64,000 nucleotides of DNA, taken from Acidobacteriota bacterium. GTDB lineage: Bacteria; Acidobacteriota; UBA6911; RPQK01; JAJDTT01. A program made the translations under genes and the position numbers. Location: NCBI GenBank assembly GCA_965263035.1, contig OZ253580.1, forward strand, positions 672,001 through 736,000, written 5' to 3'. Below the pieces are notes generated by a model that was given only the letters and a program-made list of their open reading frames with translations, was not told the DNA's origin and made no database searches. Below are positions 4,260 through 32,382 of the stretch, one piece after another (position 1 is the first letter of the stretch; every line of letters begins with the position of its first letter).

Positions 4260-6577
4260 GCGAAGAGACCGTCCTCGATCAGTTGATCTCCAGTCTTCGA
4301 TCCAAGGGTACACCCATCGACGGCCAAGACCGACCGGCCGCCATCCTCTGGACCGACCCGAAGCGGGAGTGGGTGCCGCTGATCGAACTGTTATTGCAAC
4401 GCGTCGGTGAATTTCTCGTCCTGGGAGATTACCAACCCGAGCGGCGCACCGGTCCCGCCGTCTGGGTACGCTGCGTCGTCGACCGCGCCGTCGACGAGCC
4501 TGATCTCCCCGCTGATCGACCGCCGATCGTTTACCTGCCTGACGTTGCGCGCCAGCAGCTCCGCGCCGGGACGGTGTGCCCGGACCGGTTGAAGCCGATG
4601 GTGGAGCTTCTGTTTCGGGGCGCACTCTGGCATCACCCCAACGGCAACGACTGGACGGTGAACGCCTACTTGACTTCACGATCTACCCTGGCCCTTGACA
4701 TCGCCGGTGATCGGGCGACCAGCGACGCGCTGCTGCGAGCGTTGTCCGAGGTGGCCCTCAGCCCGGTGAAACATCTCGCACGCCGTCACCTGGCGGCAGA
4801 CGACTTCGATCGTATGCTCGCCGGCGACGTTGTCAGAGACCTCCTGAGGTGGATGGGGGACCCGGACGGCGCGCGGAACCGCTTGGGATCGAACGAATGG
4901 GAAGCCTTCTGCAGCCGTTGCCGGGACGAGCTGGAGTTCGATCCGGCGACGGAGGCGGATGTCGTCGCAGGCGGGCTTATGGCTCAGGGCGAGGGCCCGT
5001 GGTCGGCAGTGTGGGACCGTTTCGCCGAGGCACCCCGTAGCTACGGCGACATTTCCGGACTACTTCGGCGCAGCAAACCGTCCGGCGGATTCCGCTTCGA
5101 ACGTGAACGATGGCCTGACCTGAATGACGAGGATGAGGAAACCGTTCGGCGCAGGCTCATCGCGATACCGACGCTCTTGCACGATGAGGCTTGCGAGACG
5201 GTCATCGGACTCGAAGAGAACCATGGCGTACGCCGGAAGTGGGTCTGGGCTCGCATGGGGTCGGCTCCAATGGCACGGGTCTTGACGCCTCTCTCCAATC
5301 TTGCCAAGGGGGCGCGGAATGCCTTGGGAGGAACGACCCCCGATGATGTGGCCCAAGCCTATCTCGATCGGGGCTGGCAAGCGGACCTTGGAGCGTGGGA
5401 GACGTTGGCCATCGCGCCGTATGAAGACGAAGAGTGGATCAAAGCGACCGTACGCCACCTCCTTGAGCCGTGGCTCGAGGACTCGGCGCGAGCGTTTCAG
5501 ACAGCGGTCGAGCGAGCATCCCTGCCAAGTCGCGGCGATCAGCCGACCGTAGTGGCTGCAGATGACGGCTGCATCCTGTTCGCCGACGGGCTGCGGTTCG
5601 ACTTGGCACAACGTCTGGCGGAGCGGCTGGAAGGCCATGGTCTCCGCGTTGAGTTGGACCGGCGGTGGGCGGCGCTGCCGACGGTTACGGCTACGGCGAA
5701 ACCGGCGGTGACTCCAGTTGCAGAGCAGGTCGAGGGCGACATGCTCGATCCCGCGTTCGGCGTACGGTTGAAGACCAGCGGGAAACCGGCTGACGCATCG
5801 GGTCTCCGCGCGGCGATGGAGGCACATGGGTATCAACTCGTTGGCGGCTCCGGCTCGTACGCGCCTCGTTCCCATCCGGCACGCGGCTGGCTTGAAATGG
5901 GAGCGTTCGACAGGCGTGGTCACCAGATGGGGGTTGGGGTCGCGCGCCAACTGGGCAACGAAATTAAGCGTGTGGCGGAACGGATCATCCGTGTCCTCGA
6001 CGCTGGATGGAACACGGTGCGCGTCGTTACGGATCACGGGTGGCTGCTGTTGCCGGGAGGGCTTCCGAAGGTGGGCCTACCGAAGCACTTGACCGAGAGC
6101 AGTTGGGCTCGTTGCGCAGTCATCGCGGGTGAGTCGACGCCTGACGTCACCCGTGCCCCATGGCACTGGAACAGCTCACAGTGGTTTGCGACGGCGCCCG
6201 GTATCGCCTGCTTCAACAAATCCGATGAATACGCCCACGGCGGGTTGAGCATTCAGGAATGCCTCATCCCGGATCTCCTCGTGACACGCGGAGGTGAGAC
6301 GAAGTCGACCGGCCGCGTCAAGTCGCTGACTTGGCGAGGCCTGCGCTGTTTCATCGAATCCGAGGTCCGTGGCGGGCCAGTGACCGCCGACCTTCGGCTG
6401 AATCGACCGAACGGTGAATCGGTTGCAGCGACGCCGAAGCTCCTCGACACCGAGGGGACCGTCAGCTTGGTCCTAGCCGATGACGAGCATGAAACTGCAG
6501 CGCTGGTTCTGGTTCTGCTGGATGAAGCGGGCGGGATCTTGACCCATCAATCGACTCGAGTGGGAGTGGACACATGA
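4256..6577 (+). CDS. pglZ: BREX system PglZ phosphatase-domain protein (type B-like)
   Basis: N-terminal AAILWTDP...LGDYQPERRTGPAVWVRC; PglZ motifs ADGLRFD, LPTVT, VVTDHG, YAHGGLSIQE; directly upstream of brxL. Confidence 0.9.
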   Translation: MSEETVLDQLISSLRSKGTPIDGQDRPAAILWTDPKREWVPLIELLLQRVGEFLVLGDYQPERRTGPAVWVRCVVDRAVDEPDLPADRPPIVYLPDVARQQLRAGTVCPDRLKPMVELLFRGALWHHPNGNDWTVNAYLTSRSTLALDIAGDRATSDALLRALSEVALSPVKHLARRHLAADDFDRMLAGDVVRDLLRWMGDPDGARNRLGSNEWEAFCSRCRDELEFDPATEADVVAGGLMAQGEGPWSAVWDRFAEAPRSYGDISGLLRRSKPSGGFRFERERWPDLNDEDEETVRRRLIAIPTLLHDEACETVIGLEENHGVRRKWVWARMGSAPMARVLTPLSNLAKGARNALGGTTPDDVAQAYLDRGWQADLGAWETLAIAPYEDEEWIKATVRHLLEPWLEDSARAFQTAVERASLPSRGDQPTVVAADDGCILFADGLRFDLAQRLAERLEGHGLRVELDRRWAALPTVTATAKPAVTPVAEQVEGDMLDPAFGVRLKTSGKPADASGLRAAMEAHGYQLVGGSGSYAPRSHPARGWLEMGAFDRRGHQMGVGVARQLGNEIKRVAERIIRVLDAGWNTVRVVTDHGWLLLPGGLPKVGLPKHLTESSWARCAVIAGESTPDVTRAPWHWNSSQWFATAPGIACFNKSDEYAHGGLSIQECLIPDLLVTRGGETKSTGRVKSLTWRGLRCFIESEVRGGPVTADLRLNRPNGESVAATPKLLDTEGTVSLVLADDEHETAALVLVLLDEAGGILTHQSTRVGVDT

Positions 6578-8634
6578 CTCAGTCCGTAGAGATGGATCAC
6601 CTGGACAACATCGCCGCGAGCGCATTTCCAGGCTATCTGGTCCGTAAGGACCTGGTTCGACGCTACGCGCGCCAATACCCCGTTCCGACCTATGTCGTGG
6701 AATTCCTCCTCGGGCGCTACTGCGCGAGCGTTGACGAGGAAGAGATCGAGGAGGGGTTGGCCATTGTAGAAAAGCAGCTCCAAGGCCGGACGGTCCGGAC
6801 GAGTGATCGCGAGATCTTCAAGTCACGGGCGCGGGAGCGTGGTTCCGTCAAGCTGATCGATATCGTTCGTGCGCGCTTGGACGCTCGGAACGACTGTTAC
6901 GTCGCCGAGCTTCCGAGTCTGCATCTGAAGGACGTCCAGGTCGCAGATTCCATTGTCAAAGACAACGAGAGGATGCTCGCAGACGGATTCTACGCGGAGG
7001 TCAAACTCACGTACGACCCCATCACAGCCCAGGAGAAAAAAGGCCGACCGTTTCACATCGGCCTGCTGCGCCCGATTCAGATGTCGAACCCGCACGTACT
7101 CGACGTTCTGGCCGCGGGGCGCCAAGCATTTGATACGGAGCAGTGGCGTGACTTTCTGATCCGCTCCACCGGCCTCGAACCTGAAGCGTTGGGAGAGCGG
7201 GCGAAACGGGTCGCCTTGCTGCGTATGGTTCCATTCGTCGAACGCAACTACAACCTGGTCGAACTCGGTCCTCGCGGGACGGGCAAGAGCCACGTTTACC
7301 AGCAGATCTCGCCATACTCCCATTTGCTTTCAGGCGGCAAAGCCACGGTTGCCAAGATGTTCGTCAACATGGCGAACGGTCGTCGTGGCCTGGTCTGCCA
7401 ATACGATGTCCTCTGCTTCGACGAGATCGCCGGAATCTCCTTTGACCAGAAGGACGGTGTCAACATCATGAAGGGCTACATGGCCGCCGGTGAGTTCAGC
7501 CGGGGAAAGGAGAGCATCCGTGCCGAGGGTTCCATCGTGATGGTCGGCAATTTCGACGTCGATGTTGAGCAACAGCAGCGGATTGGACATCTCCTGAGCC
7601 CGCTACCCAAGCAGATGCGCGACGACACCGCGTTTCACGATCGGATACACTCCTACGCCTCCGGATGGGACTTCCCCAAACTCAATCCCAACGAGCACCT
7701 GACCCATCACTTCGGACTCGTGAGCGACTTCCTGAGCGAATGCTGGTCACGGATGCGTCAGACCAGCCGTCTCACAACGCTGCAGAACCGTGCGTTTTGG
7801 GGTGGGGCTCTTTCGGGCCGCGACATCGAGGCCGTGCACAAGACTACGTCCGGGCTGATCAAGTTGCTGTATCCGGACCCGGAGATGCCCGTTCCCGACG
7901 AAGAGCTCGAGTGGATTCTTCGCTTGGCGTTGGAGTCACGCCGCCGGGTCAAGGAGCAGCAGAAGCGTTGCCTCAAGAGTGAATTCAGAAACACACATTT
8001 CTCGTTCACGCTTGGGGTTGACGGTGTCGAGCAATTTGTCGCGACCCCGGAGCTGCACAGTGACGAGGCTATCGACTCGGACCCGTTGCCTCCCGGGCAA
8101 GTCTGGGCGGTGGGACCGGGTAGCGCTGAAGCGGGAGTCGGACTTTATCGAATCGAGGTGGCCGTCGGTCCAGGAGGAGGCAGCAAGATCCTGAACCAGC
8201 CATCGCCCCCGGCGTTCCGGCAGAGCGTGAAGGTGGGTGAGCAGAATCTCTACGCCCGTGCCAAGGAGCTGGTGGGGAATCGCGATCCCCGCTCCCACGA
8301 ATATACGATCCAACTTCGTCCGTTCGATGCGGACAAATCGGGCACAGGACTGGGCCTCCCGGTCCTGGTGGCTTGTGTCGGCTCGCTTTTGGAACGGAGC
8401 ACACGCGGTGGCGCCATCATCGTGGGACCGCTCAACCTGGGTGGATCCCTTGACCTGATCTACAACCCGATCGCAATAGCGGAGTTGGCGGTGGACAAGC
8501 AGGCCGCCACACTGCTCATGCCCGTGTCGTCCCGGCGTTCCCTCATCGACCTCCCCGATGAGCTATGGACCAAGATCAACATCGAGTTCTACAGCGATCC
8601 CGCTGATGGCGTCTTCAAGGCGCTTCTGGACTGA
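6574..8634 (+). CDS. brxL: BREX system Lon-like AAA+ protein BrxL
   Basis: VPTYVVEFLLGRYC; ELGPRGTGKSH (Walker A); FDE (Walker B); DTAFHDRIH; Lon-like C-terminal domain; ATGA overlap with pglZ. Confidence 0.92.
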   Translation: MTQSVEMDHLDNIAASAFPGYLVRKDLVRRYARQYPVPTYVVEFLLGRYCASVDEEEIEEGLAIVEKQLQGRTVRTSDREIFKSRARERGSVKLIDIVRARLDARNDCYVAELPSLHLKDVQVADSIVKDNERMLADGFYAEVKLTYDPITAQEKKGRPFHIGLLRPIQMSNPHVLDVLAAGRQAFDTEQWRDFLIRSTGLEPEALGERAKRVALLRMVPFVERNYNLVELGPRGTGKSHVYQQISPYSHLLSGGKATVAKMFVNMANGRRGLVCQYDVLCFDEIAGISFDQKDGVNIMKGYMAAGEFSRGKESIRAEGSIVMVGNFDVDVEQQQRIGHLLSPLPKQMRDDTAFHDRIHSYASGWDFPKLNPNEHLTHHFGLVSDFLSECWSRMRQTSRLTTLQNRAFWGGALSGRDIEAVHKTTSGLIKLLYPDPEMPVPDEELEWILRLALESRRRVKEQQKRCLKSEFRNTHFSFTLGVDGVEQFVATPELHSDEAIDSDPLPPGQVWAVGPGSAEAGVGLYRIEVAVGPGGGSKILNQPSPPAFRQSVKVGEQNLYARAKELVGNRDPRSHEYTIQLRPFDADKSGTGLGLPVLVACVGSLLERSTRGGAIIVGPLNLGGSLDLIYNPIAIAELAVDKQAATLLMPVSSRRSLIDLPDELWTKINIEFYSDPADGVFKALLD

Positions 8635-8734
8635 AGACCTCGCCGCCGTCCAGACGGATTACGCTGGGACAGCCGCAGTCGCTGTACAGCCGGAATCTTC
8701 AGGGGCCGCTTCTTGCTCCGATTCGGACCGAAGA

Positions 8735-9402
8735 GGGCACCCACAAGGTCGCGGTAGGGACGCCGGTTGCCCAGCGCCCCCCCGCGCAGATCCGTGCGTG
8801 CCCGCTAAGGCACACGGCTCCTACTTCAGGTAATGACGGCGGGTCGTGACACCCGCCATATCCGACCCCCACCTGGGTCACGGCTGCCCGGCTCTGAGTC
8901 CGGTCCGTGCTTTGGTGTGCCGAATTCCCCTTGGTTCCACCCCTTCGCTCCACCGACTCCGCAGAGAGTTCCCCCTCCTTGTTCGCCCGCTTCATCACTA
9001 CTATGGGTGAATCCGATTGCTTCCTCTCTCCCCTCATGGGTTACGGCTTTCTCCTTTCTCACAAGGCCCCGGCTCTCGCCGGGGGAGAGAAAGCCCTCCC
9101 AGGTCCCGACACAAGACGTACGTGCGTGCTTGGATTCCTCGACACCGCGGAGCCCGACTGGCCCTCACCTTCCCGGTCCAGCCGGTATTGCCTTCGACCG
9201 CACCCACAGCCTCGGCACTTCCGTTCATGTAGGTTTCGATGCTCCATAGCCCCGCCCACACGCGCCGCTACCGATGCTTCGCCGACACCCTCACGAGTGC
9301 CGACGCACGGCTCGCGGAGAAACGTGGATGGTTACTCCTTCGTTTCAGCGGACTTTCACCGCTTGTCTTGTGCCAGTTAGCCTGGCACACGGGCACCCCT
9401 AC
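8735..9402 (-). repeat. GTAG-type REP palindrome interrupted by the intron
   Basis: Joining the flanks gives GTAGGGGTGCCC|CTTGTGGGTGCCC, homologous to the intact GTAGGGGCGCCCCTTGCGGGCGCC at 58059-58082. Confidence 0.8.
8748..9390 (-). mobile_element. ORF-less group II intron (ribozyme), IIB-like bacterial class
   Basis: Minus strand begins GTGTG (GUGYG) at 9390. Domain V GAGCCGTGTGCCTTAGCGGGCACGCACGGATC (8820-8789) has the AGC triad; domain VI ends TCCCTACCGCGAC at 8748. Domain IV is reduced to a short hairpin with no RT ORF. Confidence 0.9.
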
Positions 9403-9446
9403 CAAAATTTCTTCGTACAATTGCACAAGATTTTGGGAATAAGGAA

Positions 9447-12400
9447 CTAACCTGGCGCATCCTGAGGGGCAGGATCCAGGGATGACGACGGGTCGCTGGC
9501 TTGCCAGCTCCGCCTGAGCCACATGGTCAAGTCGTCGAAGAGGGTGTAGTAGGTGGGCAGCACCACCAGAGTCAGCACCGTGGAGGCGATGAGACCCCCC
9601 ATGACGGTGCGGGCCATGGGAAAGTACCGCATGTCGAACAGGCTGCTGTAACTGTAGGCCAGCGGGATCAGGCCCACCACCGTGGTGGTCGCCGTCATCA
9701 CGATGGGACGAAAACGATCGCGGCAACCCTCCAGAATGGCGCGGCGACGGTCGATGCCCCGGCGGCGAAGGGTGTTGATATGGTCGATGAGGACGATGCC
9801 GTTGTTCACCACGATGCCGATGAGCACCAGGCATCCGATCTTGGCCATCAGATTGAAGGGCGTCCCGGTGATGAGCAGAAAGCCGGCGATTCCCACCACC
9901 GAAAAGGGCAGCGAGAGCATGATGGCCAGGGGATGAGTCAGGGATTCGAACAGCGCGGCCATGACGAAGTAGACCATGAAGAGCGCCAGCAGGATGTTGA
10001 AGATCCACTCTTGATTCTGCTGCTGGCCCCGTCTGGTCCAGAAACCCAGCGACCACCCATAGCCGTCCGGGTAGTCCAACCCATCCATGACCGCCTTCAC
10101 TTGCTCGATGCCCTCGTCCCTCTTGTCTCCCGTGTAGGTGACGAAGAGGTTGGAATAGGTCTGCCGATCCTCCCTCTGGAGCCGTGCCGCCACCTTCTCG
10201 ACCCGAAGGTCGGCGACCTGAGACAAGAGAATCTCCTCACCCTCGTCTCCATAACCCACCACCGCCGCGCGCAGGTCCTCCAGTCCACTCCGATCCTCCG
10301 GCCGTAGCCGGATGATGACATCCACCTCCCCCTCCGCCGTGCGAAAGCCCCGAACTTGCCGGCCTCGCATCAGGATGCCCAGAATCTCGGAGACGGATTG
10401 GGAGGAGACGCCGTAGCGGCGGGCCAGATCCCGGCGCAAGCGGATCTGAACCTCCTCGCGCGTGCTGTCCCGAGGCGCCGACACCTGGGAAAAGTCCTGG
10501 TGTTCCCGAAGGCGGGTCCGGGCCTCACGCAGCAGTCCGTCCAGGACTCGATGATCGTCGCCATAGAGGCTCACATTGATCCCTTCCCGATTCTGCCTTC
10601 CACTCTGGCCGGACAACTCGATCCGGCAACCCGGTATCACGGGGAGACCGCTCGAGATCTTCCGGCGGATCTCCTCCATCTCTTCCAGCCCGACCTCATC
10701 GCCATGGAAATAGATTTCGGTCGACGCATTGTTGTTGGAGAAGGAACTGAAGACCTGGTCGATCTTGAAGGCCTCCCTGTTCTCCGCAAGAAAGGACTCG
10801 ACCGGATCGACGTAGTCCTTCTCGATCTTGGCGTAGTGATAGTTCTCGGTGAATTCATACCGGATCTGGAAGCTGCCCGGCTCCTGAGCGTCGGGAGCGT
10901 TGTCGGGAACCAGGTTGAGAAGCATCCAGCCGGAGCCGGCGACCGCCAGCGGAACCAGCAGGCCCCCGACCAGGACCCGGTGTCTCAGGGGCCAGGCGAC
11001 GAGTCTCAGGTAGAAATCCATGATCCGCCAGAGGTCCGGTTCCCGCCGTTCCCCGGCGCCCGGCCCGTCATCGCCACCTCCGGTGGGCGACGGTTTGGCG
11101 GCGGCGGGACCCACGTCCAGCTTCAGGAAGCGTCCCATGGCCACTGGGATCAGGGTCAGAGAGAGAAACAGGGAACAAAGGAGTGCGAAGATGATGGCCA
11201 GTCCACAGTGGCGAAGCCAGAAGCTGAGAAAGCTCTCGGCGCCAAAGACCAGGGGAACGAAAATGATGATGGAAGTGAGGGTGGCTGCAATCACCGCCAT
11301 TTGCACCTCCTGGGTTCCCCGTTTGACCGCCTCCAGGCGATCCACACCCTGCTCCAGTTTCCGATAGATCGATTCCAGCACCACGATGGCATTGTCCACC
11401 AGCATTCCGGTGGCCAGCATGAGGCCCATCATGGAGAGGACGTTCAGGCTCAGGCCTCCGAAATACAGGAACCCGACACTCCCGACCAGCGAGAAGGGGA
11501 TGGCCAGAGCGACCGCCATGGCCGCCCTCCATTTGCGAAGGAAGAGGATCAGAACGCCTAGAGCCAGGAGTGCGCCTACGGTCCCGGCCGTGAGGAGACC
11601 CTTGAGGGCCTTGACGATCTCGTCGCCGGCGTTCCGGAGGTATTCGAACTGGATTCCCTTCAAGGCGGGATCCGACCTGATCTTCTCCAACTCCTCCTCC
11701 ACACCTCGCACCGTCGTGACAGTGTTGGCCTCGGCGGCCTTGCGAACCCAGAGCCCCACCGCGTACTCGCCGTTGAGGTGCTGGCTGGCATGGGCCACGG
11801 GACTCTCGTAGCTCACATTGGCGACGTTCTCCAGCCGAAGGCCCCGCTCGTTCACGGGGAAGACTTTGAAGTCCGTCAGAGACCGGAACATTCCCCGGGT
11901 CATGGCTCCGTAGCGGACTCCGCCGTCCGTGAACCTGCCCAGGGAGCGGTCCAGGTTGATGCCGGACAGGTTTCGGAAGAGCCGGCCCACGTCCACCCGG
12001 TACCTTCTGAGTTCATCCAGACGCAGATACACGCCGATTTCGGGTCTCTGGGTTCCGAAGAGCTCCGCTTCGGCCACCCCCGGGACCCGTTCGATCCGTC
12101 TTCTGACCTTCAGGTCCAGAAACTCGTAGGCGGTCTGCAAGTTCCTCCCGGACGCGATCCGCAGTCCCAGGATGGGCTGGTCGTCGGTACTGAAGTTGAC
12201 CACCTCGATCCGCTCCACGTCTTCCGGAAGCTCACCGCGGATCCGCTCCACCTTCTCCCTGACCTCTCCGCGGAGCCGTTGCACGTCCATTCCCATGTCG
12301 AAGAAGGTTTGTACCCCGGCCATGCCGCTGCTGGAGAAAGACTGCATCCATTGAACTCCAGAGACCGTGCTCACGACCTCTTCCACCGGTTTGGTAATGG

Positions 12401-12641
12401 TCTCCAGGACGTGAGCCGGCGTGGCGTTGGGATAGGGGACCCGCACCATCACAAAGGGGAAGTCCAGGTTGGGAAACAACACCAGGGGAATCTTGAACAG
12501 GGACACCACTCCGACCAGGAGCAGCAAGGAAAAAACGGCACAGATGGTCACCGGATAGCGGACCGAGAAACTGGCCAGCGCCGACGAGTTCGCGCGGCCA
12601 ATCGGATTCGATGACGAGTTCGGCTTCCGGTCAACCTGCAT
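9447..12641 (-). CDS. RND efflux permease (AcrB/AcrD/AcrF family), subunit 2
   Basis: RYPVT N-terminus, GMLVDNAIVVLE, GIVVNNGIVLID, RFRPIVMT. The ATG at 12641 lies 11 nt inside the 3' end of the upstream gene. Confidence 0.92.
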   Translation of the reverse strand: MQVDRKPNSSSNPIGRANSSALASFSVRYPVTICAVFSLLLLVGVVSLFKIPLVLFPNLDFPFVMVRVPYPNATPAHVLETITKPVEEVVSTVSGVQWMQSFSSSGMAGVQTFFDMGMDVQRLRGEVREKVERIRGELPEDVERIEVVNFSTDDQPILGLRIASGRNLQTAYEFLDLKVRRRIERVPGVAEAELFGTQRPEIGVYLRLDELRRYRVDVGRLFRNLSGINLDRSLGRFTDGGVRYGAMTRGMFRSLTDFKVFPVNERGLRLENVANVSYESPVAHASQHLNGEYAVGLWVRKAAEANTVTTVRGVEEELEKIRSDPALKGIQFEYLRNAGDEIVKALKGLLTAGTVGALLALGVLILFLRKWRAAMAVALAIPFSLVGSVGFLYFGGLSLNVLSMMGLMLATGMLVDNAIVVLESIYRKLEQGVDRLEAVKRGTQEVQMAVIAATLTSIIIFVPLVFGAESFLSFWLRHCGLAIIFALLCSLFLSLTLIPVAMGRFLKLDVGPAAAKPSPTGGGDDGPGAGERREPDLWRIMDFYLRLVAWPLRHRVLVGGLLVPLAVAGSGWMLLNLVPDNAPDAQEPGSFQIRYEFTENYHYAKIEKDYVDPVESFLAENREAFKIDQVFSSFSNNNASTEIYFHGDEVGLEEMEEIRRKISSGLPVIPGCRIELSGQSGRQNREGINVSLYGDDHRVLDGLLREARTRLREHQDFSQVSAPRDSTREEVQIRLRRDLARRYGVSSQSVSEILGILMRGRQVRGFRTAEGEVDVIIRLRPEDRSGLEDLRAAVVGYGDEGEEILLSQVADLRVEKVAARLQREDRQTYSNLFVTYTGDKRDEGIEQVKAVMDGLDYPDGYGWSLGFWTRRGQQQNQEWIFNILLALFMVYFVMAALFESLTHPLAIMLSLPFSVVGIAGFLLITGTPFNLMAKIGCLVLIGIVVNNGIVLIDHINTLRRRGIDRRRAILEGCRDRFRPIVMTATTTVVGLIPLAYSYSSLFDMRYFPMARTVMGGLIASTVLTLVVLPTYYTLFDDLTMWLRRSWQASDPSSSLDPAPQDAPG

Positions 12642-15600
12642 TTCTGGATGGCTCCGCCTTTCGGTCCAGGCCCTCATAAAGCACTGGCACCAGGATCAAT
12701 GTCAGGAGCGTGGCGAAGAGCAGTCCGCCCATGACGGTGACGGCCATGGGGGCTCGCACCTCCGATCCCTCGCCCCAACCCAGGGACATGGGAAGCAGTC
12801 CCAAAACAGTCGTCAGGGTGGTCATGAGGATGGGCCGCAGCCGCACTCGCCCCGCCTCGACCAGGGCCTCCCGGCGACCCAACCCCGTGCGGCGGAGTTG
12901 ATTGGTGTAGTCGATCAGGACGATTCCGTTGTTGACCACGATCCCGACCAGGATGATCACGCCCAGCAAGACCATGACGCTGACGGTGGATCCGGTCACG
13001 AAAAGGGCGGCCACCACACCGACCAGGGCCACCGGCACCGTGAACAGGATGACGAGCGGGTGGACCAGGGACTCGAATTGCGACGCCATCACCAGATAGA
13101 CCAGGAGTACCGCCAGAGCCAGGGCGAAGAGCAGACTGCTCCGGGAACGGTCGTACTCCTGGTGTTGCCCCCCCAGAGTCACCACCGCATCGGGCGGTAG
13201 CTCCCGGGACATGCCGGAGAGTTCGGCCTCGATCTGCCGGGAGACGGTGCCCAGGTCGGCGCCCGTCAAGTTGGCCGAAACCACGGCCGCGCGTTGGGAA
13301 CCCATCCGGCGTATCTCACCGGGTCCCCGCGACAACTGCACCTGGGCCACGGATCCCAACCGGATCGGCACTTGGGAATTCTCTTCCTCGCTGTCGGATT
13401 CCACCTCAGTCCGCGCCGGATTCGAATTGGACTGCGTTCCACCCGCGCCGAAGCGGGAACCTCCCACGCCGGACCGCGCGGTGTCTGCGGCGCCACCCCG
13501 GTTCCCGCCGGCGCCGTCCATCCGAGTGTTGATGACTAGATCGCGAATATCCTGAATCGCGTTCCGATCCGATTCGGCCGCCTGGACGAGAATGTCGAGC
13601 TGTCTCTCCTGGTCCCGGTAGCGAGAGGCCACCTCGCCGCGGATCTTGCTCCTCAGGATCTCAGCCGCCTGACCTTCGTCCAGGCCCAGCCGAGCCAATT
13701 GCTCCCGCCGAAACCTGATCTGGACCTCGGGGTTCCCCAATCGGGTCGAACTCTGAACATCGGCCAAGCCGTCGATCCCGGAAAGCCGAGCCATCACTTT
13801 CTCGGCGATGCTCCGCTGCTCCGCGAGGTCGTAGCTGTAGATCTCCACCTCCACCGGCTGTCTGAAGCTGAACAGGGTGGGACGGCCGAACAGGTGGGTA
13901 AGTCCCGGATATTGTCCCAGCAGACTCCTGGTGCGGCCGATCACACGCTCCTCGCCCGCCTTGTCGCGGCCGTCCTGCATGGAGACGTGAATCCAGCCCC
14001 GGTGCTCCTCGAGCGGACCCGTCGCGAACTGGTCATCGGCCCCTCCTCCCACGCTGGAGAAGACGGTGTCCACCCCGTCCAGCGCCAACACCTGGCTCTC
14101 GACCTCCCGGATGATCCGATCGGTCTCTTCCAAAGGCTTTCCTTGGGGAAGCTGGATCTCAAAGGAGAACTTTCCCTGAACCAGGGATGGGATCAACTCG
14201 GTGCCGAGGAACTGGGCCAAACCGGCGCTGACACCCACCAGGCCCAAGGTGAGAGCCAATACGCTCCCCTTGTGGTCGAGAGACCAGGCCAGGAAGCGGG
14301 GATAGGTTCGCCGCAGAGACTCGAAGCCGGAATCGAACCGCCCCAGCAAGGGGTTCAGGGGTATCAGCAGGCCTCTCCCCAGAGTCCTGAGCAAACGTCT
14401 CAGGTCGCCAACGACGACGAGAATCAGATCCACGGTGAGGAACTTCCAGACCCGCGCCCCGCCGCGTCCCGCGGCTCGGAACAGACGCGCCAGCCGGGCT
14501 TCCTCGCCGCCTGCCGCCGGGACCTGCCCGTTGCCGGACCGGGGGACCGGTTCCACCGCGATCCGCCGCCGGGACAGGAGCATGGGAATGACGGTGAGGG
14601 CGACGGCCAGGGAGGCGAGGAGGGAGTAGGTGATGGTCAGGGCCTGATCCTTGAAGAGCTGGCCCGCAATCCCCTCCACGAAGATCAGGGGCAGAAAGAC
14701 GGCCACCGTGGTCAAAGTCGACGCCGCCACGGCCTGCCCCACCTCTCGGGTGCCCTGATAGACGGCCTCCGCCAAGTCCCGGTTCCGCCTTCGGTGCCGG
14801 TGGATCGATTCCAGCACCACGATGGAATTGTCCACCAGCATGCCGACTCCCAAGGCCACTCCGCCCAGCGACATGATGTTCAGGGTCACGCCGGTCTGGT
14901 ACATCAAGGTAAACGTGGCCATGACGGAAATCGGGATGGAGAGGCCGATGGTGGCGGTGCTGCGAAGGTCCCGAAGAAAGACGAACAGGACGAACGTCGC
15001 CAGCAATCCTCCCAGGAGGGCCGCCGCCGCCACGTTCCGGACCGCCAGACTGATGAACTGCGCCTGGTCGTAGACGATCTCGTGGGTCAACTCGCCGGGA
15101 TAGGTCTTCTGCTGCTTGAGCTTCTCCAGGCGTTCTCTCACCGCCTCGGAAACCGCCACCGCGTTGGCGTCGCCTTCCTTGTAGATGCGCAGCTCCACAC
15201 TCTCCCGGCCGTTGAAGCGGGATATGACCTCCCGCTCCTTGGTCCCCCGCCAGACTCTGGCCACGTCTCCCAGAACCACTTGGCGTCCATCCAGATTCCG
15301 AACGATGAGGTTCCGAATCTCCTCGACCGATTGGAACTCGTTGAGCACCCGGACCAGATAGTTGGCGTCCAGGTCATACAGGCTCCCGCTCGCCTGATTG
15401 AGGTTCGCCTCGCGAATGACGCTGCTGACCTCGCTGATTGGAAGGTTCAGCTCGGCCAGCCGTTTCTCGTCGATCTCGATCCGGATCTGCTCCTCGCGGC
15501 CGCCGGCCACTTTGACCGCCGCCACTCCCGAAGTCGATTCCAGACCTTGCTTCACCTTTCGCTCCGCCAGGTCCCGGACTCGGCTGAGGGGGGCGTCCCC

Positions 15601-30150: not shown

Positions 30151-30344
30151 GGGGCAGAGGTCGAAAGATCCTCCTCGTCCTCCAGGTGAACGGGGGTGTC
30201 AGCCGGTCCCGGAGTCGCATTCATGATGCCACAGACGACTGCTAAATCGAGGTTATCGGGTTGACGCCGGCGGTGGTCTCTTGAAAGCGCCCCGTTGCTC
30301 CGATAACATGATCGGTTGAGTCCCGGCTTGCGGGCCCGAGACCA

Positions 30345-32382
<2,038 letters not shown>

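Follow-up and report, generated by a model that had tools for sequence, protein, structure and literature searches.

A 643-nt group II intron in the genome of an Acidobacteriota bacterium carries guide sequences that are, with high confidence, matched to GTAG-tagged repeats of the repetitive extragenic palindrome (REP) type. The intron lies in the 64,000-nt stretch analyzed here (the window; positions 672,001 to 736,000 of contig OZ253580.1), and the host genome is a single 6.2-Mb contig with 62% G+C. A sequence-only reading of this DNA had proposed that the intron is programmed to home into GTAG-family REP palindromes; the present analysis confirms that proposal and extends it. On the minus strand, the repeat half GGTAGGGGTGCCC is followed by the intron, GTGTG...CCTACCGCGAC, and then by the second repeat half, CTTGTGGGTGCCC (Table 1). 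Di Nocera et al. (2013) describe GTAG-tagged REPs as palindromes of 20-40 bp in which a terminal GTAG is left unpaired, and the target palindrome, which consists of GTAG + GGGC(A/G)CCC + CTTGT + GGG(T/C)GCCC, agrees with this description.

This group II intron is non-autonomous, and its domain 1 is IIB-like. The intron proper lacks an open reading frame (ORF), opens with GTGTGCCAGGCTAACTGG..., and closes with ...CCCTACCGCGAC, after which comes the exon CTTGTGGGTGCCCTCTTCGG; the range marked in the sequence-only reading (8735-9403) includes the whole of it but also spans both halves of the interrupted repeat. The boundaries were fixed from seven aligned genomic copies with their flanks, because similarity among these copies, which start with GTG(C/T)G and finish with CGCGAC, begins and ends at those bases. 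Rfam model RF02005 (group-II-D1D4-6) is matched over its full length (1-225) at 9356-9133, with 155.4 bits against a gathering score of 49. The match to RF00029 (domains 5 and 6, D5-D6) spans the whole model (1-77; E 4e-5) but, at 35.1 bits, does not reach the gathering score of 40; it runs from 8822 to 8748 and stops precisely at the proposed 3' boundary. Near the base of D5 one non-standard pair is flagged (G opposite A), and the same D5 3' end, GGATC, is found in a relative from Sinorhizobium meliloti. Compensatory D5 variants occur among the copies, the boundary motifs GUGYG and AY are present (GUGUG ... GAC), and the catalytic landmarks are all intact: GUGUG at the 5' end, D5, the bulged A of domain 6, and AC at the 3' end.

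Evidence for how the target is chosen comes from 47 5' junctions in six genomes of the genus. The alignment of these junctions (A1) has 41 distinct uninterrupted rows, with the interrupted copies L057, L069, and L084 and the duplicates L067, L072, and L073 omitted; a partial copy in G003 without the anchor (L074) is in no table. The exon-binding sites EBS1 (9205-9200) and EBS2 (9233-9229), as assigned in the sequence-only reading, were to pair with the intron-binding sites IBS1 and IBS2 of the 5' exon and to covary with them among homologues. Both assignments are borne out: in the Rfam structure line EBS1 occupies a terminal loop and EBS2 an internal-loop segment, and compensatory changes occur in both. 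With 11 proposed pairs in 41 rows, 94.7% of the 451 cells are paired, and in 8 of the 11 pairs both partners have changed. Covariation scores 0.304, compared with a mean of 0.119 for shuffled data (0 of 500 shuffles as high), and pairing falls to 33-56% when the partners are slid by 1-3 columns. EBS1-IBS1 is the tighter of the two interactions (98.8% of cells paired, five of six pairs changed on both sides), followed by EBS2-IBS2 (89.8%, three of five pairs). This covariation shows that the target is selected by base pairing.

Guides and exons differ together from lineage to lineage. In the window copy, the exon GTAGG g GTGCCC, with C at +1, faces EBS2 CCUAC and EBS1 GGGUGC; EBS1 makes four Watson-Crick and two wobble pairs with this actual exon (GUGCCC) and would match the prevailing repeat form, GCACCC, at every base. 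Its sisters in G006 and G007 have the same EBS2 and EBS1 (CCUAC and GGGUGC) and the exon GTAGG g GCACCC (+1 C), and its sister in G005 has GTAGG g GCGACC (+1 C) with EBS2 CCUAC and EBS1 GGUCGC. In the majority lineage, GGAG(C/G) g GCG(A/G)CU (+1 U) is met by EBS2 GCUCC and EBS1 AGUCGC, and sub-lineages with exons ending in GGGACU, GCGAUU, and GGGGUU have EBS1 AGUCCC, AAUCGC, and AACCCC, respectively. The copies in G004 combine GCATG g GCATCT (+1 A) with EBS2 CAUGC and EBS1 GGAUGC. Three more distant relatives have EBS1 at the same place, each perfectly complementary to its own positions -6 to -1 (GCGGGC/GCCCGC, CAGAUC/GATCTG, and GCCUGC/GCAGGC). For EBS3 there are two candidates: the position aligned with G9252 forms a standard pair or a wobble with +1 at 40 of 45 sites, and the position aligned with G9245 fits the A (window) and D lineages only, and alone explains the G004 case.

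The flank into which the intron is inserted is a true repeated element across the genome. The strict pattern GTAGGGG[CT][GA]CCC has 37 matches, compared with 3 for the pattern read backwards, and a complementary 3' arm follows in 29 of these 37 cases, most often in the arrangement GTAG GGGC(A/G)CCC CTTGT GGG(T/C)GCCC TCTT. The pattern GGAG[CG]GGCG[AG]CT has 192 matches against 21 for its control, 163 of them with the 3' arm. The GTAG REPs had been regarded as high-copy substrates; the repeat is real, but its abundance is moderate, and the main target family is the GGAG-tagged one. More than 100 REP copies per genome have been reported elsewhere (Nunvar et al., 2010). Gene calls were crude (GC3-based) and cover 77% of the genome, compared with which 23 of 37 GTAG and 130 of 192 GGAG matches (62-68%) fall outside coding sequence; by the same calls, six of the seven intron copies in the genome lie just downstream of a co-oriented gene. 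Junctions across the genus carry the tag, with G[GT]AG at -12 to -9 in 43 of the 47. All four copies of the window lineage, one per genome in four genomes, lie within GTAG-tagged hairpins, as the sequence-only reading had anticipated, and are inserted after GTAGGGGC(A/G)(C/A)CC or GTAGGGGTGCCC. A perfect stem of at least 6 bp, with the intron 0-2 nt into the loop, is present at 32 of 45 sites (L066 and L067, for which no 3' end was found, were omitted) and at 44 of 5000 random positions. By the covariation, EBS2 reads the unpaired tag and the first bases of the stem (GTAGG here, GGAGC/G in sister lineages) and EBS1 reads the remainder of the 5' arm; the intron enters at the 5' stem/loop junction. 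Such repeats would suit the intron in being numerous and mostly outside genes.

A gene for a REP-associated tyrosine transposase (RAYT), which the sequence-only reading had proposed to locate, has a candidate in this genome. A 224-aa ORF at genome positions 2,482,813-2,483,487 (minus strand; L016) has REP_Tyr_transpos (NF047646) as its best NCBIfam model (73.9 bits, cut-off 80), matches PF01797 at 35-36 bits (cut-off 23), and contains NHVH (HuH) and YIRENP (Y) motifs, as read from the sequence. A GGAG-type array opens at its stop codon, which shares bases with the tag of the first unit, and intron copy c7 lies within that unit; no repeat array was seen upstream of the gene. A second RAYT-like copy (around 3,478,000, plus strand; L015) has similar hairpins on both sides, with GTAGGAGCGGGGG... 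on the other strand. The association of the RAYT-like gene with the repeats and the intron is positional only; if a RAYT-type transposase spreads the repeats, fresh sites for the intron would keep arising. The GGAG-type tandem arrays (L006 2154-2264; L007 1431-1503) repeat every 28 nt or, where two variants are combined as a dimer, every 56 nt, and differ from the inverted pairs typical of REP doublets (REPINs) and bacterial interspersed mosaic elements (BIMEs).

The genome contains seven full copies of the intron, 89-100% identical, plus one 67-nt 5' fragment. This fragment (L008; G000 4,424,636-4,424,702) follows a GGCGGCGACT target and is itself followed by unrelated sequence; a matching fragment is present in G006 and G007. 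Matches to the intron were found in all eight other genomes of the genus and, outside the genus in the same order, in 5 of 52 genomes, where they are limited to the D5-D6 end. Sister genomes encode two forms: an ORF-less form of ~643 nt (G005, G006, and G007), and a form of 1912-1917 nt with an ORF of 499-519 aa (G002, G004, G005, and G007). In a tree of the first 520 nt (the three interrupted rows omitted), a branch supported at 100/100 has every ORF-less row (21 of 21) on the same side, and the four GTAG-targeting copies form a 100/100 clade nested within them. By this topology, the ORF-less copies constitute one clade of deletion derivatives of the 1.9-kb intron, and one deletion followed by retargeting is the simplest reading of their history. 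The window lineage changed EBS1, EBS2, and the candidate EBS3, and thereby moved from the GGAG-tagged to the GTAG-tagged family. In the window genome, c3 matches c4 at every base over 642 nt, with c2 different at one base, and c5 likewise matches c6 over 643 nt. Because these copies are identical at different loci while flanking genes are 88-90% identical between species, the identical ORF-less copies must have spread after the species separated. Some copies elsewhere in the genus are interrupted: L057 (G007) and L069 (G006) have a 112-nt A+T-rich insert at the same place in domain 1, and inserts of ~2 kb occur near the 3' end of L067 (G005) and early in domain 1 of L084 (G002). Three ORF-containing copies in G004 (L102-L104) are situated immediately upstream of an ORF for a tyrosine-recombinase-like product of 387 aa, and this ORF overlaps the intron 3' end.

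The window intron has no reverse transcriptase (RT) ORF: intron-encoded proteins (IEPs) of the sister genomes match only the first ~55 codons by tblastn (genome positions 681037-680873, 70-74% identity). The sister-genome IEP matches TIGR04416 (363.8 bits, cut-off 300) and RVT_1, with a weak match to GIIM (maturase), and has no endonuclease domain, there being nothing after the maturase match; its matches in Pfam, NCBIfam, and PDB name it as "group II RT/maturase" only, with no class D, E, or F label. No cognate RT/IEP of this intron family was found in the window genome by tblastn with sister IEPs and a survey of the genome's RT genes. The IEP genes that are present (five intact and one disrupted) sit in introns whose Rfam D1-D4 class is a different one, and they share 31-38% identity with the family IEP. 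The sequence-only reading had included an RT acting in trans; no cognate one is encoded in this genome, and that layer is instead deduced from the ORF-containing copies of sister genomes, where helper-type ORF copies co-occur with ORF-less copies (G005 and G007). The window copy may therefore be stranded; the helper of the ORF-less copies may have been lost recently or may be one of the foreign IEPs of the genome.

The orientation of the copies suggests a route of mobility. In the window genome, dnaA (2.872 Mb) coincides with the minimum of cumulative GC skew, and the maximum is 3.0 Mb away. All seven copies are co-directional with fork movement, as are 43 of 45 copies when five chromosomes are taken together (each with its dnaA located; for the other four, the terminus was placed opposite dnaA by assumption); of the two exceptions, one is at 0.99 of its replichore. 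The repeats themselves are oriented less strictly, with 134 of 192 GGAG matches (70%) and 13 of 37 GTAG matches co-oriented in the window genome. Relative to the 134/192 baseline, the intron bias has a one-sided p of 1.9e-5, to be read in light of related copies that are not fully independent and a baseline from one genome. Because the copies are co-directional with the fork, the IBS-bearing strand is the lagging-strand template. This template is preferred by the group II intron RmInt1 (PMC5894124) and serves as the substrate for Y1 transposases of the IS200/IS605 type (PMC6006769). The intron ribonucleoprotein (RNP) would thus reverse-splice into the repeat while the latter is single-stranded on the lagging-strand template at the fork; the nascent lagging strand would prime cDNA synthesis, as described for RmInt1, and the RT would be provided in trans by an ORF-containing copy of the kind present in sister genomes and absent here.

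Contigs of four public sequencing runs were also searched; three of these, from one sample, look like DNA, and one is an RNA run. The ligated-exon junction (8747-9391) was not found in the contigs of the four runs, from which we draw no inference on splicing or expression; the RNA run contains parts of the intron only, and the small shares in RNA runs say nothing about habitat or transcription. In runs X2 and X5 (one sample), contigs join the 3' end of the intron to its 5' end (8748/9390), with the last base replaced. These two runs look like DNA, with contigs up to 110 kb and equal depth on both flanking genes, and the head-to-tail junction is absent from the assembly and from all fetched loci. 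Possible sources are a circular form of the intron, a tandem copy carried by some members of the population, or the arrangement of a relative.

A number of observations weigh against homing into REP hairpins by guide pairing. The -8 pair is unpaired in 20 of the 41 rows, and EBS3 has two candidate positions. Thirteen of the 45 sites have no perfect 6-bp stem (many or most of them are one-mismatch hairpins), L094, L065, and L066 look ectopic, and the three G004 copies lie in a 3.1-kb repeated unit that has an integrase-like ORF and no palindrome. The window 5' arm (9391-9396) reads GTGCCC, compared with GCACCC or GCGCCC in uninterrupted members of the family, and the window lineage, at one copy in each of its four genomes, is not a prolific homer. 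The D5-D6 score is under the Rfam gathering score, no cognate RT gene accompanies the intron, and neither ligated-exon nor lariat evidence was obtained. The orientation bias is partly inherited from the repeats, given the 70% of GGAG repeats that are co-oriented. The RAYT-like gene scores below its cut-off and is adjoined by the GGAG family only, and its second copy contains an in-frame stop. In one alternative, the intron makes no choice of repeats: it is cargo of a REP-/RAYT-mobilised or other composite unit, and the repeat flanks are shared by descent. The window hairpin is indeed part of a repeat unit of ~105 nt, repeats at the orthologous locus vary between species, and the 3.1-kb unit of G004, in which one insertion may later have been copied, gives its three copies a common flank of ~80 nt upstream and ~1.1 kb downstream. 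Outside G004, however, flanks past about -14 and +12 are unrelated among copies, and the four A-lineage copies are in differing upstream contexts. Uninterrupted copies of the ~105-nt unit are all without the intron: a blastn search with the rejoined flanks identified four others in the genome (80-84% identity), contiguous at the insertion point, as well as many intron-free copies in sister genomes. Because two sister genomes have only a spacer of 72-76 nt at the orthologous position, without the intron, both the unit and the intron are gains of this lineage. Transport as cargo does not predict covariation of EBS and IBS, and we regard it as highly improbable.

It is also unlikely, although less so, that the RNP recognizes the shape of the hairpin, as group IIC introns do, with base pairing secondary. 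The sites occupy a fixed place in the hairpin, the RT has no endonuclease domain, as in IIC introns, and a relative in a metagenome-assembled genome (MAG) of Terriglobia is inserted directly after a complete hairpin in every listed copy. Yet the intron has a 6-bp EBS1 together with an EBS2 of 4-5 bp, both of them covarying, whereas no EBS2 and an IBS1 of 3-4 bp are described for IIC introns (PMC7923331), and insertion inside the loop means that the paired 5' arm must unfold to be read. Furthermore, several copies combine a matching IBS with a poor hairpin. The window copy is one of these, its site having 3 perfect bp as DNA compared with 8 at the three sister A-lineage sites; two adjacent transitions in the 5' arm spoil the DNA hairpin and retain wobble pairing with EBS1. 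A different alternative accepts that the family homed into repeats, and holds that the window copy is a relic that no longer moves and may not splice, for which "programmed to home" describes history; we rate this as a substantial possibility, a little short of even. The missing cognate IEP, the status of the intron as the single copy of its lineage in the genome, its ~5% divergence from its closest relatives, the two changes in the exon arm, the low D5-D6 score, and the failure to see a spliced form in the run contigs would all fit a relic. Conversely, all of the catalytic landmarks have been retained, both exon changes are transitions that keep the pairing with EBS1, and other ORF-less copies in the genome are identical at different loci, which implies mobility after the species split. 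For the family as a whole, selection of REP hairpins by guide pairing is the reading that we adopt below.

The family combines known features, with group II retrohoming aimed at REP hairpins. The closest parallel is with RmInt1 and RmInt2 of S. meliloti (class D, IIB3; RT without endonuclease), which home by EBS/IBS pairing into multi-copy targets, ISRm2011-2 and the inverted repeats of ISRm17, prefer the lagging-strand template with priming by the nascent lagging strand (compare the 43/45 orientation bias here), and decay to ORF-deleted remnants (PMC5894124). Unlike these introns, the present family targets a palindromic repeat of 25-30 nt rather than a gene of an insertion sequence (IS), and its ORF-less form has itself spread and been retargeted. 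An intron on S. meliloti pSymA also matches Rfam D1D4-6, and its IEP is 55% identical. Group IIC introns share with this family the DNA stem-loop that marks the site, an RT without endonuclease, and insertion outside genes; they are described as lacking EBS2, having an IBS1 of 3-4 bp, and inserting after the hairpin of a terminator or within attC sites (PMC4424553; PMC7923331). Membership of group IIC was rejected on the basis of the covarying EBS2, the 6-bp EBS1 and IBS1, and insertion into the loop at the 5' stem/loop junction (by 0-2 nt). TeI3 and TeI4 of Thermosynechococcus elongatus are similar in that ORF-less derivatives accompany or outnumber ORF copies, targets have diverged through EBS changes, and insertions are into other mobile DNA and intergenic regions (PMC2882425). 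They differ in being described as close to EcI5, in having IEPs with an endonuclease domain, and in their targets, which are further introns, an element of the IS200 family, and various intergenic sites rather than palindromic repeats (PMC2882425); in addition, the window genome lacks the helper RT.

REPs are known as landing pads for mobile elements such as ISPpu9, ISPpu10, ISPa11, and IS1397, which, unlike the present element, are DNA transposons (PMC1525189). The same paper associates a group II intron of Pseudomonas putida KT2440 with REPs in two of nine copies (22%, a weak association), with no EBS/IBS analysis in the portion concerned; here, by contrast, 43 of 47 junctions have the repeat tag and the guides covary with it. 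Among Creative Commons-licensed and bioRxiv texts, this mention is the only one found that links group II introns to REPs, RAYTs, or REPINs, and earlier note of such a link, for example in the bacterial group II intron database, is possible. A 2026 preprint that mentions both subjects deals with each on its own. The sequence-only reading did not recognize the layered system as well described: homing into REP hairpins was indeed found only marginally in print, but homing into IS targets and the movement of ORF-less introns in trans were already known.

Relatives with IEPs 64-70% identical have multiplied in several MAGs beyond the genus. In the Terriglobia MAG (G061; L158-L173), 16 of 16 listed copies are directly after the palindrome GCGGGCGTC(C/T)CGCCCGC, which occurs 578 times in this 4.8-Mb genome (control 0), partly in regular arrays. 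The G061 intron has an IEP that is 66% identical, a 5' end of GAGCG, and an EBS1 (GCGGGC) that matches the 3' arm of the palindrome. Alphaproteobacteria MAGs contain many copies (L124-L153 and L175-L179; IEP 64-70% identical), of which the common exon is the last six bases, G(A/G)TCTG or GC(A/G)GGC, and no hairpin was found at these sites. Because the Terriglobia copies are located behind a palindrome, and those of Alphaproteobacteria share IBS1 only, repeat-homing is recurrent but not universal in this intron clade. At L178, two introns stand head to tail in assembled DNA, the 5' end of the second coming directly after the first.

Bacterial group II introns are credited in a 2015 review with three target specificities, namely homing sites, terminators, and attC sites (PMC4424553), and a 2021 paper states that a role for upstream secondary structure is unreported for IIB introns (PMC7923331). 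Guides matched to the tag and stem of a REP would constitute a further strategy beside these three, and would indicate that an IIB-like intron can live in hairpin repeats. We are evenly divided on a broader proposal: that REP palindromes are a fourth natural target class, for which EBS1, EBS2, and EBS3 are reprogrammed together; that a transposase spreads the repeats, the repeats receive ORF-less introns, and these depend on the RT of another copy, all on the lagging-strand template; and that homing into such palindromes arose at least twice in Acidobacteriota, the Terriglobia relative being the second case. The five EBS1 variants within the RT-less clade, each with a matching repeat variant, provide a natural retargeting series that makes it testable how non-autonomous introns switch targets while keeping their helper. 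The family would also connect two kinds of mobile element, as use of the lagging-strand template has been described both for introns with an endonuclease-free RT and for Y1/RAYT elements. For genome annotation, elements of 643 nt, and the repeats that they split, are easily missed.

Table 1. Features of the intron locus and its surroundings in the window.
Feature	Position	Strand	Evidence
ORF-less group II intron, 643 nt; 5' GUGUG, 3' ...CCUACCGCGAC	8748..9390	-	RF02005, RF00029, alignment of seven copies
5' exon half of repeat, GGTAGGGGTGCCC	9391..9403	-	Junction alignment, pair counts
GTAG tag	9402-9399	-	In 5' exon half
IBS2, GTAGG (-12 to -8)	9402-9398	-	In 5' exon half
IBS1, GTGCCC (-6 to -1)	9396-9391	-	In 5' exon half
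3' exon half of repeat, CTTGTGGGTGCCC; loop CTTGT; +1 C at 8747	8735..8747	-	Sequence, copy alignment
3' arm, GGGTGCCC	8742-8735	-	In 3' exon half
EBS1, GGGUGC, terminal loop of domain 1 d'' hairpin	9200..9205	-	Rfam structure line; 5/6 pairs covary with IBS1
EBS2, CCUAC, internal loop of domain 1 (CCTACA, 9233-9228)	9229..9233	-	Rfam structure line; 3/5 pairs covary with IBS2
Stretch with two EBS3 candidates, G9252 and G9245, either able to pair with +1 C	9245..9252	-	Comparison across sites
Domain 5	8789..8820	-	RF00029 alignment; compensatory variants among copies
Domain 6, bulged A at 8755 (7 nt before last base)	8748..8788	-	RF00029 alignment and sequence reading
Remnant of lost RT/maturase ORF (first ~55 codons), domain 4	8873..9037	-	tblastn with sister IEPs
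~105-nt repeat unit with GTAG hairpin	3' part 8704..8747; 5' part 9391-9448	-	blastn of rejoined flanks
Upstream co-oriented gene, 1076-aa ORF	9447..12677	-	Intron begins 57 nt past stop codon
Convergent gene across intergenic region	6574..8634	+	ORF
Thiamine pyrophosphate (TPP) riboswitch	30341-30447	+	57.3 bits, gathering score 54.3

Two other families of RT-bearing group II introns (D1D4-3/-1 and D1D4-4) are present in G000, at ~529.7 kb, 984 kb, 2573 kb, 5053-5057 kb, 5538 kb, and 5842 kb. One of these RTs is split by ~2.2 kb of inserted DNA, and the D1D4-4 intron L010 is situated just upstream of a 23S rRNA gene.

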